Virus record (IMG/VR): IMGVR_UViG_3300008516_000204
Coordinates: 42,112-106,111 of that record
From: a virus
Direction: 5' to 3' (one strand)
Length of the DNA: 64,000 nucleotides
Part shown: positions 3,041-41,313 of the stretch, one piece after another
How positions within the stretch are numbered: the first letter of the stretch is position 1
Layout of the letters: every line of letters begins with the position of its first letter
Translations under genes and position numbers: made by a program
Notes under the pieces: generated by a model
Told to the model about the DNA's origin: nothing
What the model saw: the letters and a program-made list of their open reading frames with translations, nothing else
Databases searched by the model: none

Positions 3041-3627
3041 GAAAATTAATATTATTAGCAATATTCATAAGTTTATCTATATATTTGATTAAGACGAATT
3101 TTGTAGAGCTTAAATATCATTTGCCCCTGCCTATAAAAATAGAAACCAGAGCAAATCTGACAGAGACTAAAAAAATGTTGCAGGGCAATCCGATGAAAAT
3201 AGCAAGATGGTTGGATAACAATATAACTGGAAAGTCAGATGGAAGAATTCAGTATGCCCAAACACCAGAAGAGACATTTGAGAGGCGCACTGGTGATTGC
3301 GAAGATTATAGTATTTTGGCAAAATATTTTTTAGATTCTCGATATGATGAAATTTATTTAATAATCTGGCAAGGAAAGTCTAAGTCCTCATCTGAACATT
3401 ATGCAAAGCGTAAACAACAATCAATATGTCACTGTATTTGTGTATTCAAGATAGGCGAAAAAATGTGGGGTATAATGGATAATAGCAATTTTATAATGGC
3501 TTATGGTTCAATAGAAGATATAGTTAAAGCAGATTGTGAATTTAGAGATACTAGGATTGGGCGTGCCTATATTGTGCGATTTACTCACTATATTTATCGA
3601 AGAATTAAGAAACTGGATATAAAATGA
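3037..3627 (+). CDS. membrane-anchored transglutaminase-like cysteine protease, copy 1
   Basis: N-terminal hydrophobic anchor; Q.PEETF...GDCEDY (Cys), ICHCIC (His), IMDN (Asp). Confidence 0.75.
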   Translation: MRKLILLAIFISLSIYLIKTNFVELKYHLPLPIKIETRANLTETKKMLQGNPMKIARWLDNNITGKSDGRIQYAQTPEETFERRTGDCEDYSILAKYFLDSRYDEIYLIIWQGKSKSSSEHYAKRKQQSICHCICVFKIGEKMWGIMDNSNFIMAYGSIEDIVKADCEFRDTRIGRAYIVRFTHYIYRRIKKLDIK

Positions 3628-4160
3628 CCAAGAGAAAGAAAAATAAGAAATCACGACGAGACAAATCCCGTGTCCTACATCTATTCAAGGAAATCAATAG
3701 CGATAGTGTTGAAAATATTATCACAAAACTCCTCGAATTAGATAGGGACAGGAAGCGGAGGCTCATTACCATTTATATAAATTCTCCTGGTGGGGATTGT
3801 GGTTCAGGATTTGCTCTCATCGATATTATGGAAAAATGTAAGTGCCCTATTAAAACAATCGCTGTGGGCGAGGTGGCGAGTATGGCTGTTCCAATTTTTT
3901 TGGCTGGAACGCAGGGAAGGCGCTATATCTCCAAGCATACATTTCTTATGATACATCCGCTTCATTTGGGAGCGAGGGATTATTTATCTTTCGCTAAATC
4001 GAGAGTGTTAAATGCCGAAGAACTTGAGAAATTGTATGACAACTATGTTATTGATAGAAGCAATTTACCTAAAAAGATTATAGATAAGGCAAAGACTAAA
4101 GAAGTATGGCTTAATGCTAAAGAGTGTTTAAAATATGGGTTGGCTGACAAGGAACTATAA
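3624..4160 (+). CDS. clpP: ClpP-like serine protease (S14)
   Basis: IYINSPGG, VASMA (Ser), MIHP (His), WL.A.ECLKYGLAD. Confidence 0.85.
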   Translation: MTKRKKNKKSRRDKSRVLHLFKEINSDSVENIITKLLELDRDRKRRLITIYINSPGGDCGSGFALIDIMEKCKCPIKTIAVGEVASMAVPIFLAGTQGRRYISKHTFLMIHPLHLGARDYLSFAKSRVLNAEELEKLYDNYVIDRSNLPKKIIDKAKTKEVWLNAKECLKYGLADKEL

Positions 4161-4744: not shown

Positions 4745-5295
4745 AAAAATATCAAATTATATATGTAGATCCTCCTTGGTCTTACAACGATCAAGGTTGT
4801 CAAGGAACAATGGCAAATCATTATAAAGGTATGAAACTGGAGGATATTAAGAATCTTCCTGTGAACCAAATAGCCGATAAGAATAGTATATTATTTTTAT
4901 GGACAACTTATCCAATGTTGCAAGAGGCATCGGAAGTGATAAAGGCATGAGGCTTTCAATACAAGAGTATTGCCTTTCAATGGGTCAAACTAAATCCCAA
5001 AGCCCTAACCCCTTTCTATGGATTAGGGAGACGGACACGGGGTAATACAGAACCATGTTTATTGGCAACAAAAGGTAAGCCTAAAAGAGTAAGTGCCTCT
5101 GTTTTTCAACTAATATTTGCTCCTCGCAGAAAGCATAGTCAAAAACCAGATATAGCAAGAGATAAAATCATTCAACTAGTAGGAGATTTACCTCGTATAG
5201 AATTGTTTGCTACAGAGAAAATAAAAGGATGGGATTCAATAGGTTATGAGATCGATGGCAAGGATATACGAGATGTTTTACAGGAGATGATATGA
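4741..5295 (+). pseudogene. MT-A70 family adenine methyltransferase interrupted by an in-frame TGA at 4948-4950
   Basis: YVDPPW, LFLWTT, then EVIKA*GFQYKSIAFQWVK...TRGNTE.CLLA...HSQKP...RIELFA in one frame; joins ORFs 4741..4950 and 5062..5295. Confidence 0.85.
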
Positions 5296-6206
5296 AAACA
5301 AATAAAAATCTTAATTATTATATCAAGGTCTGTAAGAAATTGATAGATAGGCCATACAATAAATTCAATCTGGGCAACTATCGAGGCATTATGGCATCTG
5401 AATATGATACCCCTGTTTACTCCTACCCAACAAAATCAGATAGCCCGATTAAGTTGATGGCAGGACAGCATAGAGAAGCCCAGATTATTTCCACCGATTA
5501 TCAATTTAAGCATAATAAAAGGCGAATTATCTTGGTGGGAAAAGGGATTTTATTTGATTCAGGTGGATATAATCTAAAGCCCAAAATGGTGAATATGAAA
5601 AGTGATATGGCTGGGATGGCTGTCTCATTTGCTGTAGCTTCTTATTTTAAAAAGCAAAATGATGTAATTGCCTTCTGCCCTGTTGCAACGAATTTTCTTG
5701 ATGGAAATCAGATAATCCCTGGCGATGAAATAAAAATAGGTAATAAAATTGTTAAAATAACCAATACAGATGCGGAGGGAAGATTGATTTTAGCCGAGGC
5801 ACTTTCTGAATTAAAAGTCAAACCCACAGATATAGTAATCACAGTTGCGACTTTAACTGGGGTTGTGGGCTATGCGATAGGTGATAAGGCTACTGGCGTT
5901 TTTAGTCCTAATAAAAGATTGGCAAATAAGTATTTGGAAGCATCTAAAAAGGCAAAAGAACTGGCATGGGAATTGCCCTTATGGGATTATTTGCAGAAGC
6001 ATTTTGATAAGAAGAAAATTAAAAATGTCCAGAAGATAAATCCAGGTGCCTCAATGGGAGCAATGTTTCTCAAGCAATTTGTTAGATATCCCCAAAACTG
6101 GTTACATCTCGATATCGCTTATTCTGCTTGGGATAAGAAAAAGGAAAAGGCAACTGGTGAGCCAATTAAATCGTTAGTTCAATTTATAGAAAGGATAGGG
6201 CAGTAG
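5292..6206 (+). CDS. pepA: M17 leucyl aminopeptidase (mostly catalytic domain)
   Basis: VGKGILFDSGGYNLK, MKSDMAG, NTDAEGRL, ATLTG, WLHLDIA. Confidence 0.92.
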   Translation: MKTNKNLNYYIKVCKKLIDRPYNKFNLGNYRGIMASEYDTPVYSYPTKSDSPIKLMAGQHREAQIISTDYQFKHNKRRIILVGKGILFDSGGYNLKPKMVNMKSDMAGMAVSFAVASYFKKQNDVIAFCPVATNFLDGNQIIPGDEIKIGNKIVKITNTDAEGRLILAEALSELKVKPTDIVITVATLTGVVGYAIGDKATGVFSPNKRLANKYLEASKKAKELAWELPLWDYLQKHFDKKKIKNVQKINPGASMGAMFLKQFVRYPQNWLHLDIAYSAWDKKKEKATGEPIKSLVQFIERIGQ

Positions 6207-7503: not shown

Positions 7504-8217
7504 ATGATTAGACTTAAGACAGATAAAGATATTCAGTTAATTGAGAAGGCAATCGAAATAGGAAAAAATGCTTTATCGGTTGCCAAGCAAATTACTGTTG
7601 TCGGGATTACTACACAGGAGATAGATAGGCAAGTGGAAGCATACATTCTTAAAAAGGGTGCCGCTCCCTCGTTCAAAGGCTACAAGGGCTTTCCTACTGC
7701 TTGTTGTATAAGTTTGAATAATGAGATAGTACATGGATATCCCAGAGATAACAAGATAAAAAGCGGTGATATAGTCAAGATAGATATTGGTATATGCTTT
7801 AAGAGCAGATATTCCGACCAAGCAATTACATTTGTAGTTGGAGAAGGCAAGTCTAAAAAGCATCTTGATTTAGTATATACAACCAAACTGGCATTAGAGA
7901 GAGCAAAAAAGGTTGCTATTCCAAATAATACTTTGAATCAGATTTCGTGGGAAATACAGCGAACAGCACAGGAAAATGGATTGGGTATAGTTACTGCTTA
8001 TACAGGACATGGCGTGGGTTTTGAAATTCACGAAGAACCAATTATCAGAAATATTGTTACTCCAAATGAAAATATGCGATTAGTAAAAGGAATGGTGTTG
8101 GCTATTGAGCCGATGTTTGCATTAGGAAAGGGCGATGTTGAAGATAAAGGATATGCTGTTGTAACTAAAGATAATAGTATGTCCTCCCATTTTGAGGAAA
8201 CAATTATCGTAAGATGA
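7504..8217 (+). CDS. map: methionine aminopeptidase type I
   Basis: GYKGFP..CCIS.N.EIVHG, KIDIG, YSDQA, GHGVG, IHEEP, AIEPM, HFEET: all five metal ligands present. Confidence 0.95.
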   Translation: MIRLKTDKDIQLIEKAIEIGKNALSVAKQITVVGITTQEIDRQVEAYILKKGAAPSFKGYKGFPTACCISLNNEIVHGYPRDNKIKSGDIVKIDIGICFKSRYSDQAITFVVGEGKSKKHLDLVYTTKLALERAKKVAIPNNTLNQISWEIQRTAQENGLGIVTAYTGHGVGFEIHEEPIIRNIVTPNENMRLVKGMVLAIEPMFALGKGDVEDKGYAVVTKDNSMSSHFEETIIVR

Positions 8218-10311: not shown

Positions 10312-10512
10312 ATGAAAGACCCAAAAAGAATAAATAGAATATCAAAATTGATTGGGAAGATTTGGAGAAAAAATCCTAGTTTGAGATTATGCCAATTAAT
10401 AGGAAATTGCTTTAATTTTAGCACAAACGATACTTCAATAATAAACGATTTATATTATATAGAAGATGACGAATTGGAACGAAGATTAAGAGAGATATAT
10501 AAGGAGGAATAA
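10312..10512 (+). CDS. conserved phage hypothetical protein
   Basis: MKDPKRI...W..NP.LRL.QL pattern. Confidence 0.6.
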   Translation: MKDPKRINRISKLIGKIWRKNPSLRLCQLIGNCFNFSTNDTSIINDLYYIEDDELERRLREIYKEE

Positions 10513-10514
10513 AG

Positions 10515-10808
10515 TTGAGTCTGCATAAGACATTGAAGCCGAGAAGAAAAAAGGTTCGTTCCGTTCTAAAGAGACATGAAAGATTGGCAAAGGCTATTAG
10601 GGAACGGAATTGGCTCAAAAAGATGGGTGCATATGGTTTACCCAAGTTTAACCCACTAAAATTTAAAGTGAAAAAGAAAGAGGAAGAAGAGCAAACAACT
10701 ACATTAGGTAAAGTTGATATTGTAGCACAGCATAAATTAGAGAAAGAAAAATTAAGAGAAGAAAAAAAACAGAGAAAGAAAGGGAAAGATACAACTGGAA
10801 TAAGATGA
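10515..10808 (+). CDS. PVC-superphylum small basic (signature) protein homologue
   Basis: MSLHKTLK...RSVLKRHERL......W.....GLPK...KFKVKK; strong AAGGAGG RBS, TTG start. Confidence 0.75.
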   Translation: MSLHKTLKPRRKKVRSVLKRHERLAKAIRERNWLKKMGAYGLPKFNPLKFKVKKKEEEEQTTTLGKVDIVAQHKLEKEKLREEKKQRKKGKDTTGIR

Positions 10809-11407
10809 TTAAATATTGCCTATGTGGTAATAAAATAGATAAAAGGTCTAAAAATTGTAGAATATGTGCTAACTTGGGAATAAATAATCCAAGATATGAA
10901 TTTAGTAAATATAATATAACTAAAGAATTTTTGATAGAAGAATATCTTAATAATAGAAATTCCATTTCTCAAATTGCAAGAAAGAAAAAATGTTCCGAAT
11001 CTTGTATTTATAGTAAATTGAAGAAATTTCAAATTCGGATTAGGACAAGAAGCGAAGCTAATAAAGGAATAAGTAGAGGTTTGGGTAAGAAACGACTTCC
11101 TTTTACAAAGGTGTGGAAAAGAAGAATTAGTGAAAACCATGCAGATTTTTCTGGTAAAAATAATCCCAGATTTGGTAAAAGATTATCCAAATAAACGAGA
11201 AGAAAAATCAGAACTACAAAAGTCAAACATCATGTTTATTTAAAAGAAAATAAAGACGATACGGTACTTATTAAGCAATCAATTCATCGTAAATTACACG
11301 CATATGCTTATAATTATTTAGTAGAACTTGGTTTAATTAAAAAATATATTAAATGGTTTGAAAAAAAATTGAAAATAAAATTAATGAAAACTATGGGGAG
11401 GAAATAA
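10805..11407 (+). pseudogene. free-standing HNH-like homing endonuclease interrupted by an in-frame TAA at 11192-11194
   Basis: The frame continues *TRRKIRTTKVKHHVYLKEN...IHRKLHAYAYNYL...YIKWFEKK, homologous to the C-terminus of 25966..26628. Confidence 0.75.
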
Positions 11408-38835: not shown

Positions 38836-41313
38836 ATGAAATTAACTAATAAAGAACGAAAACTGTGGTTCCAGAAAATTTTGAGTCGGCGAGATAACTG
38901 CAAAAATCTGAGGGCTTTTGTCTATAATATCTTTGGGGTAAAATTATATTCTAACCAAGTAAAATCGTTGAGAGATTTTTTAGACCCATCTATTAAGAAA
39001 GTTTTATTTTCATGTGCTCGCCAGGGTGGAAAAACAATGGATATTGCGATTGCTTGTGCAATCATTCCAATATTTTATGATAACATTCATATGTATATTT
39101 TTGCCCCAAAACAGGAGCAGGCACAAATCAGCTTTGAACGGTTTTCCAGCCTTGTCCATACCAATCCCTATAATATCTATGCTGGCTCATTAGCTGTAGA
39201 TAAGTCAGATAGAATTAAATTCTCAAATGGGACAGAGATTAGGGCTGTAACCGCCTCACGAAATGCGGAAATCGAGGGATTAACTTGCCATATCATAGTG
39301 CTTGATGAAGCCCAAGCAATATCACCATTTAAGGTGCGAGAATGTGTTTCTGGTAATATGAGGATTCCTTTACCAACTGGTGATTATGCAACTATGCCTG
39401 AAATTATTAAGAAACAACTTAAAGTTATTACTCCTGATGGTCCAGAAAGGCCAATTAGATATTTCAATGCTGGTATAGATATTCTACATGCTATTTATTT
39501 AGATAATGGGAAAATTTTAAAAGTAAATAAAAATCATAAGCATCTTGTTTACAGCAAAAATTGGAGAGATATAAAATCAGGGGCGGTAAAGAAATTGAGA
39601 ACAGATGAGTTAAAAGTTGGTCATCGTTTAGCTGTAGCAGATAAATTACCTTATTTTGGTAACGAGGGTACCTATGACGATGGTCTTATAGTAGGTAGTT
39701 TTTTAGGCGATGGATCTATTTGTAATGATAAACCAGAATTTTGTGGGTGTCCTAAATTTGTATCTATAATATCATCTGTTATATGGAAAAAGTATAATTT
39801 GAAATTTAAACTTAAGCCAATAAAATCTAAAATTTTGGAAGGCGTATTTACAAATAATAAAGGGGGGAAATGGAATAGTAATCCTTTAACAAAATATTTT
39901 CGTGATATGGGAATGTGGGGAATGAAAGGCGAATTTAAACAGATTCCTAATAAGCAATGGTCTAAGAAATTTCTTCGGGGTCTAATAGTTGGTCTTATTG
40001 AGACTGATGGTTGTATTAGTCATGTTAAAGAAAAAAAGGGAATTATATCATTTGGTAATATATCCAAAGAATTAGTAATCCAATTGCAAGATTATTTAGT
40101 TAAATTTGGAATACACGGCACCATTTTTCACAAAAAGAATAATAAAGGATTTGGTAAAAATCCTAAACCTTTTTATATTCTATCCATTAAGGGTATTGAA
40201 GATATTCGCAGATTCCATAAAAACTTCCAATTGATTACCAAGCAAAAAGTTTTAAACGAAATTGTTGATAATATGAAAAATAAGTCTCCAAGAATTTCCA
40301 GTAGGCACTATCCTAAAGGAATACGATTTATGCAGATTAAAAAAATTGAACAATCGGAGACAGAAAATGTTTATTGTGTTGAGGTCAAAAAGCATTTATG
40401 GATAGTTGATGGAATTATTACAGGAAATAGCATTTACCCAATGGGTGGAGCGGTTCCTGGCGGGGCTAAAATTATTCAGTGCGGTGTCCCAGGTGTTCGG
40501 GGGACACATTTTCACAAGGCGTTCAAAAATAAGTACGACCAAAAGATTAATCCTTTAGGTTATGTACAACATATCTATCCTTGGGATAAATGCCCTATTT
40601 TAGACAGAGACTATGTATTGGCAAGAAAGGCAGAAGACCCAATCAGTTTCGCAACCCAGTATGAACTAAGCTGGGAAAAGTCCAATATCGGAATGTTCTT
40701 ATCCGAGGAAGATTGGGCACGCTGTATCGTTCATTATGAGCTCAGGGATAAGAAAGGCAAGCCCCTGCGTGGCGAGTTTATGGGCATAGACTTTGCAAAA
40801 TTAAGGGATTCCACTGTCATTACAGAACTGAGGCAAGATCCAGACCATCTTGAGCAGTTTTATGTAGTAGGCTGGTGGGAACTCTCTGGGGTGGACTACG
40901 CCTCACAGATAGGTTTTATTAAGAACTTATGGCACAATGAGTTAAAGCAGATATATGCTGATAAATCATCTGTAGGAGAAGGGCCTTTGGATGTATTAAG
41001 GCAGACAGGCATGCCCATTGAGGGCTTTAATTTCGATATTCAGCATAAGGATAAATTATACAAGAACTTGGCAAACTTCATCCAAAAAGGGCAGATACAC
41101 TGGCCAGCCTCGACTCCAAGAGGCTTTGAAAAGGAATATGCACATTTTAAGCAACAGATGATGGAATTGGAAAAGGAGTTCAAGCTATCGGGACTTATCT
41201 CTGTCCACCACAATTTGGATGATTCTCTGGGGAGAGATGATTTTCCCGATTCGATAGCTCTGGCTGTATGGGCAGCTACTCACTTTATTGAGCCTTCGGC
41301 ATATACTGCATGA
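38836..41313 (+). CDS. terL: terminase large subunit, intein-containing
   Basis: ARQGGKT Walker A, IVLDEAQ Walker B, GIDFA..RDSTV and DD.PDS.ALA nuclease motifs. Confidence 0.93.
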   Translation: MKLTNKERKLWFQKILSRRDNCKNLRAFVYNIFGVKLYSNQVKSLRDFLDPSIKKVLFSCARQGGKTMDIAIACAIIPIFYDNIHMYIFAPKQEQAQISFERFSSLVHTNPYNIYAGSLAVDKSDRIKFSNGTEIRAVTASRNAEIEGLTCHIIVLDEAQAISPFKVRECVSGNMRIPLPTGDYATMPEIIKKQLKVITPDGPERPIRYFNAGIDILHAIYLDNGKILKVNKNHKHLVYSKNWRDIKSGAVKKLRTDELKVGHRLAVADKLPYFGNEGTYDDGLIVGSFLGDGSICNDKPEFCGCPKFVSIISSVIWKKYNLKFKLKPIKSKILEGVFTNNKGGKWNSNPLTKYFRDMGMWGMKGEFKQIPNKQWSKKFLRGLIVGLIETDGCISHVKEKKGIISFGNISKELVIQLQDYLVKFGIHGTIFHKKNNKGFGKNPKPFYILSIKGIEDIRRFHKNFQLITKQKVLNEIVDNMKNKSPRISSRHYPKGIRFMQIKKIEQSETENVYCVEVKKHLWIVDGIITGNSIYPMGGAVPGGAKIIQCGVPGVRGTHFHKAFKNKYDQKINPLGYVQHIYPWDKCPILDRDYVLARKAEDPISFATQYELSWEKSNIGMFLSEEDWARCIVHYELRDKKGKPLRGEFMGIDFAKLRDSTVITELRQDPDHLEQFYVVGWWELSGVDYASQIGFIKNLWHNELKQIYADKSSVGEGPLDVLRQTGMPIEGFNFDIQHKDKLYKNLANFIQKGQIHWPASTPRGFEKEYAHFKQQMMELEKEFKLSGLISVHHNLDDSLGRDDFPDSIALAVWAATHFIEPSAYTA
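39343..40428 (+). mobile_element. intein with LAGLIDADG endonuclease (362 aa) in TerL
   Basis: Starts CVSGN just after Walker B; GSFLGDG, GLIETDG; ends VYCVEV...ITGN|S. Confidence 0.92.

Follow-up and report, generated by a model that had tools for sequence, protein, structure and literature searches.

A complete tailed phage from marine sediment encodes a diverged relative of the small basic protein (SBP), which since 2008-2014 has been recognized as the only protein peculiar to the PVC superphylum of Planctomycetes, Verrucomicrobia, Chlamydiae and relatives such as Omnitrophota. As judged from alignments and profiles, the first ~47 residues of the phage protein are homologous, by common descent, to the cellular family designated TIGR04137 or CT421.2, and the protein appears best filed as a viral subfamily of that superfamily. 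The preliminary description of this DNA had presented the gene as apparently that of the PVC small basic protein, carried on a phage. A true, divergent homologue is indeed what was found, but it belongs to a separate viral subfamily and is not simply the host's version of the protein.

The window, i.e. the whole stretch of 64,000 nucleotides that was analysed, comprises bases 42112-106111 of a 106,111-bp IMG/VR virus record that has 99-bp direct terminal repeats (DTR) and is rated 100% complete. Since this record encodes a tape measure protein (TMP), a terminase, a tail fibre, PolA and SbcC, it is that of a tailed phage, and the source of the gene is a bona fide complete tailed phage of 106 kb, the DNA of which is present in marine sediment metagenomes (two samples, one study). 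No tRNA genes were found in the phage record and no Rfam RNA families in the window. The terminase large subunit (window 38836-41313) is unusually long at 825 aa; its PHROG matches span only residues about 28-174 and 644-760, and the roughly 470 residues left unaccounted for may be an insertion or an intein. The SBP gene and the elements around it are the following:

10312-10512, + strand: 66-aa ORF, which adjoins the small basic protein gene in relatives too
10501-10507, + strand: Shine-Dalgarno sequence AAGGAGG, 7 nt 5' of the TTG start, read from the sequence
10515-10808, + strand: gene of the phage small basic protein (97 aa and a stop codon; pI 10.65), recognized by its ORF, homology, orthologues and dN/dS
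10515-10655, + strand: N-terminal TIGR04137-like domain (residues 1-47), net charge +14, dN/dS 0.04-0.08
10656-10805, + strand: phage-specific C-terminal extension (residues 48-97), common to the phage orthologues and missing from cellular members

The start codon of the gene is the TTG at 10515, and this assignment is supported by 25 orthologues that begin with MS(I/L)H at the equivalent position. The Shine-Dalgarno sequence falls within the last codons of the upstream 66-aa ORF, the stop of which occupies 10510-10512, and the ATGA at 10805-10808 combines the TGA stop of the small basic protein gene with the ATG of the ORF that follows. Because its ribosome binding site is located within the end of one ORF and its stop overlaps the start of another, the gene is translationally coupled, and it lies within a long same-strand gene block. 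Within 4 kb of the gene there are no terminator-like sites, and promoter-like sites around it occur only at chance level. In the encoded protein, residues 1-55 have a net charge of +19 and residues 56-97, a mixture of K and E, a net charge of +2. The ORF, the strong ribosome binding site, the quoted motif and the extended charged tail that had initially been reported are all real, as is evident from the sequence itself, the 25 orthologue starts and the charge distribution. The ORF directly downstream (129 aa, window 10805-11194) combines an N-terminal CxxC...CxxC with repeated basic motifs and lacks both a Pfam match and a counterpart in the related phages L002-L004; it resembles a mobile insertion and is perhaps the remnant of a homing-endonuclease DNA-binding module.

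Relationship to the cellular small basic proteins

The NCBIfam profile TIGR04137 ("small basic protein", short name Chlam_Ver_rRNA) is a hypothetical equivalog of 50 positions with a curated cut-off of 50 bits. It matches residues 1-46 of the window protein over profile positions 1-48 of 50, and the profile check that had been proposed at the outset gave a significant match (E 5.6e-8), with a score of 32.5 bits, which lies under the cut-off. The same profile matches all 26 phage-type proteins (best E 1.7e-14), and the phage-type copy on contig L005, which is discussed below, exceeds the cut-off at 51 bits. In the reverse direction, 1.84 billion representative proteins were searched with a phage-family profile, which at E<=0.001 picked out 409 of them and reached cellular members down to E 3e-11. 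Nearly all of these 409 are 50-160 aa long and are matched at the N-terminus, several of the cellular ones carry the source name "small basic protein", and every one of the 59 cellular proteins tested is a TIGR04137 match; the lengths of cellular members lie between 49 and about 160 aa. When the 26 phage-type and the 59 cellular proteins were compared as profiles (hhalign), the probability was 99.7% and the E-value 5e-26, with 58 columns aligned at 45% identity. The joint alignment, of 64 sequences, contains the invariant positions M1, V17, R23, P43 and K44 as well as the near-invariant columns S6, L7, R20, E22, W33 and L42, all of which are present in the window protein. The CT421.2 alignment by Gupta (Hou et al. 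2008, Suppl. Fig. 8) has the pattern MS.H.S..RNVLKRFERI..W..GLPKT (PMC2474590), which the window protein matches as well; the TIGR04137 consensus that the preliminary description had given from recall is accurate when held against this published alignment.

With 97 aa, a pI of 10.65 and a domain that begins at Met1, the window protein is a small basic protein in the ordinary sense of the words. It does not qualify as an equivalog of the cellular one, because it is viral, branches in a clade apart, differs in its tail and occurs in another context, namely a DTR phage genome in which no SPOR-domain gene is adjacent. Neither Pfam nor PHROGs contains a match to the window protein. A PDB sequence search returned no chain at E<=0.1, the sole match (L35, E 0.86) being a chance one, Foldseek found no fold relative of the AF2 model in the PDB, and the ESM Atlas search gave no usable matches. 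A word-indexed search for shorter proteins was likewise empty, which reflects its low sensitivity, as the full HMM search retrieved hundreds.

It is also apparent that the viral copies have a character of their own. A collection of 5.8 billion proteins contains 26 clusters of orthologues of about 97 aa, with a mean column identity of 68% and with conservation that covers both the N-domain and the tail. In a tree of 216 sequences and 60 columns, the 27 phage-type rows make up one side of a branch with an SH-aLRT of 96, which indicates that the viral copies are one clade; they also share a private, conserved and presumably helical C-terminal tail. Compared with cellular members, phage copies have a 2-residue deletion in the loop preceding RSVLKR, and they read GLPK(F/Y)NPP where the cellular proteins continue from GLPK(V/I)K into a basic stretch, KxKKEK. 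The phage extension runs from FNP(P/L)xFK through a linker rich in K and E to TTLGK, after which come a long predicted helix, a K-rich stretch and a terminal, TTGRK-like motif, (K/D)(E/T)TTG(R/I)(K/R). The AF2 model (64-sequence alignment; pLDDT 76, pTM 0.37) is extended and non-globular, with an N-module predicted as an extended chain plus one short helix (residues 20-29) and with a long predicted helix at residues 69-93 (window 10719-10793). A complex prediction for two copies of the tail (residues 56-97) scored 0.01, a value that counts neither for nor against self-association.

Nei-Gojobori estimates of dN/dS between the window gene and its counterpart in L002 are 0.25 overall, 0.04 for the N-domain and 0.33 for the tail; against L003, the values are 0.11 overall and 0.08 for the N-domain, the tail being saturated. 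These estimates point to purifying selection on the phage protein that is much stronger on the N-module. Two metagenomic proteins have other arrangements: in P0029, a phage-type N-module is followed by an unrelated acidic C-terminus, and P0028 (220 aa) joins a signal-peptide-like N-terminal part to what corresponds to the phage SBP's C-terminal half. Frameshifting, chimeric gene calling or genuine domain swapping may account for both, the contigs of which are short or unread.

Gene neighbourhoods and predicted function

A search of IMG/VR for other viral copies, which had been suggested as a check, was productive. Three further contigs carry the SBP gene, with a PolA that is 84-93% identical to the window PolA, and all three keep the gene order ERCC4-family nuclease, small ORFs, SBP, DNA methyltransferase, PolA. 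The 66-aa ORF adjoins the SBP gene upstream in L002 and downstream in L004, and conceivably the two may be functional partners. In L004 (2740-6546), PolA matches the window PolA in two pieces ~1.3 kb apart, a gap that may hold an intein, an intron or an endonuclease gene inserted there. Another SBP copy, 54% identical, is located between an SbcC-like gene and an exonuclease on contig L005 (G004:C3, JBHLKP010000003.1, 80,943 bp), which belongs to a MAG labelled Candidatus Hodarchaeota. Because SBP and the PHROG matches to SbcC and exonuclease are accompanied on this contig by a tape measure homologue (36% identical to the TMP of the window phage), it is almost certainly a tailed-phage contig that was binned into an Asgard archaeal MAG, and the presence of a phage contig in this Hodarchaeota MAG should be flagged as a matter of data quality. 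Phage SBP genes sit among replication/recombination genes in at least two diverged tailed phage groups, and in all phages examined the gene is found amid replication, recombination and DNA-modification genes.

The window phage additionally encodes a set of enzymes of N-terminal protein maturation and proteolysis within 16 kb: peptide deformylase (Def; G000:36671-37096, 5 kb before the window), ClpP (window 3624-4160), an M17 aminopeptidase without the N-terminal domain (also called PepA; window 5292-6206) and Map (window 7504-8217). In L003 and L004, both of which keep the SBP gene, neither Map nor the aminopeptidase is found at the syntenic position, so these two enzymes are not linked to it.

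Based upon these features, the best explanation, which we hold with modest confidence at somewhat better than an even chance, is that the gene is a virus-borne, diverged SBP xenologue, captured by the phage, the product of which binds nucleic acid and substitutes for, or competes with, the host SBP. Firstly, an ancestor of these phages would have captured the SBP gene from an Omnitrophota-like host. Secondly, the strongly basic, largely extended N-module would still bind nucleic acid, like the cellular protein, for which Lagkouvardos et al. reportedly observed gel retardation in 2014. During infection, the phage SBP would occupy the sites of the host SBP, either substituting or competing, and the phage-specific helix would add a new contact, changing what is recruited. 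The phage SBP probably docks on the target of the host SBP, because all of the invariant residues are kept, and by analogy it would most likely act as a nucleic-acid binding protein in place of, or against, the host protein. As for the level of action, we lean toward DNA or the nucleoid over the ribosome because of the position of the gene in every phage examined. A role at the level of DNA or the nucleoid, connected with replication and recombination of the phage, is a tentative proposal that falls short of an even chance, and a ribosome/rRNA role for the phage SBP is a serious if less likely rival. The replication-block position is in itself weak evidence for a DNA-level role, because early and middle phage operons mix functions.

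The cellular gene has a recognizable setting of its own. Among the 151 Omnitrophota genomes sampled, 144 contain a TIGR04137 match over the cut-off, in a single copy in nearly all; SBP is a housekeeping gene of nearly universal occurrence in Omnitrophota and other PVC bacteria. A low-scoring match in one Omnitrophota genome (G035) was considered as a prophage copy and rejected, as it is of a divergent cellular type. A SPOR-domain gene lies immediately upstream of SBP on the same strand in 16 of 20 sampled Omnitrophota loci and is also upstream of SBP in 5 of the 6 loci from the GTDB scan described below. A stand-alone tRNA-binding-domain gene (PF01588) comes after SBP in 7 of 26 Omnitrophota loci, and aroB is often found after it too; across the Omnitrophota loci L006-L054, the gene order is SPOR-domain protein, SBP, SH3 or tRNA_bind (PF01588), aroB. 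In E. coli, the SPOR-domain gene damX adjoins aroB as well. For this reason the neighbourhood was set aside as a functional clue, and it is possibly just inherited synteny.

In the strongest alternative, PVC bacteria possess in the cellular SBP a ribosomal or rRNA-bound protein of their own, and the phage copy would enter host ribosomes and bias translation there. We consider this possible, if unlikely. It would agree well with a ~50-aa core that is very basic, single-copy and near-universal in the phylum, with conservation that is highest in a short N-terminal peptide, and with an extended, non-globular AF2 chain of the kind found in many small ribosomal proteins. The proximity of the ribosome-associated Def and Map, together with PepA and ClpP, could be viewed in the same light, and phage-encoded small ribosomal proteins are reportedly a known precedent. 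The NCBIfam short name Chlam_Ver_rRNA and the tRNA-binding-domain gene that follows SBP in some Omnitrophota loci also fit, as does the CT421.2 mRNA of C. trachomatis, which is among the most abundant (PMC5541142). However, the protein has no ribosomal-protein Pfam match or other homology to a ribosomal protein family, no resembling chain is present in solved structures, those of ribosomes included, and no rRNA or other Rfam family is located within 5 kb of the SBP gene in six cellular loci. Furthermore, Map and PepA are missing at the corresponding position in two phages that retain the SBP gene (L003, L004), and the phage SBP genes are always among DNA-metabolism genes. More doubtful again is the fuller proposal that the PVC signature protein is an as yet undescribed lineage-specific ribosomal or rRNA-maturation protein, a tailed variant of which, encoded by Omnitrophota phages and placed in host ribosomes, favours phage translation. 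Were the ribosomal reading true, the phage gene would be the first of its kind, a lineage-specific ribosomal protein encoded by a virus, and a protein whose sole use since 2008 has been in marking phylogenetic groups would gain a function.

Origin of the gene and the probable host

Our preferred reading, capture of the gene from a host SBP, bears directly upon the identity of the host, which is very probably a PVC bacterium and probably a member of the Omnitrophota. Among the best cellular matches to the phage profile, every named one is from Omnitrophota (P0031, P0040, P0044). The GTDB was scanned with motifs from the phage family, using one genome per GTDB species, and besides the misbinned phage contig this retrieved two Omnitrophica MAGs and four "uncultured Planctomycetia" MAGs, two of which are in the Omnitrophica GTDB phylum sample, the other two sharing their synteny. 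The TPA MAGs at L007-L010 are titled 'uncultured Planctomycetia bacterium'; at least two of them, L008 (G113) and L009 (G002), belong to the GTDB phylum sample that also contains Omnitrophica bacterium RBG_13_46_9, so that their NCBI label conflicts with their GTDB placement. The tree with cellular homologues, one of the checks proposed earlier, puts the phage clade next to a sequence from Omnitrophota, in the portion of the tree where all 49 Omnitrophota rows fall and away from RNVLTR-type sequences, with weak supports (73-75) in a 60-column data set without labelled Verrucomicrobiota, Chlamydiota or true Planctomycetota sequences.

The preliminary description had named a PVC bacterium, plausibly of the Omnitrophota, as the host, and it had looked to map and recA for concordance. 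The first part is supported indirectly by the best named matches, the GTDB scan and the weakly supported tree position; as to the second, the two genes gave no host signal. The phage RecA shares 40-44% identity with cellular RecAs from a wide range of phyla, CPR/Patescibacteria names being the most frequent, and the phage Map has at most 45% identity to Omnitrophota. Both proteins appear to be non-discriminating between hosts, and the host call therefore depends upon the SBP gene by itself. The use of TGA as a stop codon by the phage excludes a code-25 host.

An improbable alternative is that the host lies outside of the PVC superphylum, for example in the Patescibacteria/CPR or another sediment lineage, and that the SBP gene was obtained through an older or indirect transfer and carries little host information. 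The named RecA matches would agree with this, being mostly Spechtbacterales, Gracilibacteria, Kazan, Berkelbacteria and Peregrinibacteria with one Omnitrophota, yet a RecA at 40-44% to everything is uninformative, and some of the territory is closed by the TGA stop. Map, for its part, is no nearer to Omnitrophota than is usual between phyla. A phage-type copy is found in none of the 151 Omnitrophota genomes sampled and in one MAG binned as Hodarchaeota, although the latter contig is itself phage. Counter to a non-PVC host are also the purifying selection in two diverged phage groups, which is most easily explained by a cognate system in the host, and the distribution of the family itself: it occurs in 0 of 14 control genomes, and the literature records BLAST matches in PVC species only, for a protein of about 53 to >80 aa (Gupta 2012, PMC3444138). 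Finally, it is hardly credible that the TIGR04137 match merely reflects the composition of an ORF rich in lysine and arginine or that the ORF is no gene, since the score under the curated cut-off and the chance matches obtained in 9 of the 14 control genomes at E<=10 are opposed by the absence of matches in all 14 at E<=0.001, the profile-profile result (99.7%, 45% identity over 58 columns), the retention of the invariant non-basic residues S6, L7, V17, E22, W33, L42 and P43, the 26 orthologues and an N-domain dN/dS of 0.04, which together refute it.

Significance and comparison with known systems

The supposition that no viral copy had been described held true for both INPHARED and the searchable literature. 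None was detected by tblastn in 50,697 deposited phage genomes (INPHARED), and the searchable literature, the coverage of which ends short of subscription journals, contained nothing relevant on a viral copy or on TIGR04137. To our knowledge, cultured or well-characterised Omnitrophota phages are essentially lacking. A virus-borne copy of a lineage-restricted gene would provide a practical marker with which sediment phages (about 26 gene clusters) could be assigned to the Omnitrophota. Capture by a phage, with a near-unchanged N-module and a new conserved helix, argues that the protein is a control point worth hijacking, and the phage SBP presents a natural variant for comparative biochemistry as well as a handle on the function of the cellular protein.

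When compared to the cellular TIGR04137/CT421.2 proteins, the phage SBP is alike in its N-terminal ~47 residues, MS(I/L)H.SLK..R(S/N)VLKR.ER...W...GLPK, with the invariant residues kept, and in being small and strongly basic with the domain at the extreme N-terminus, ahead of a tail. It differs in being phage-encoded, under the cut-off and in a separate clade, in the 2-residue deletion before RSVLKR, and in having (F/Y)NPP after GLPK in place of the basic cellular (V/I)K.(I/F)K(I/V)KKEK. The tails are distinct as well, that of the phage proteins being a conserved helix with a TTGRK-like ending and those of the cellular proteins a variable Ala/Glu/Pro/Lys low-complexity sequence. Unlike most cellular loci, the phage gene is not beside a SPOR-domain gene.

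Two other phage-encoded systems offer obvious parallels. Mizuno et al. in 2019 reportedly described phage-encoded small ribosomal proteins such as bS21, and like these, the phage SBP is a virus copy of a tiny, basic, highly expressed, nucleic-acid-binding housekeeping protein of the host; in contrast to bS21, SBP has no homology to ribosomal protein families and no solved structure, and its ribosomal role is putative. TF1 of phage SPO1 is a phage-encoded HU homologue and a nucleoid-type DNA-binding protein. The likeness to the phage SBP is that of a host-derived, small, basic nucleic-acid-binding protein that diverged in the phage and is encoded with replication genes, whereas the two proteins are unrelated in fold and family, and the phage SBP is a putative DNA binder.
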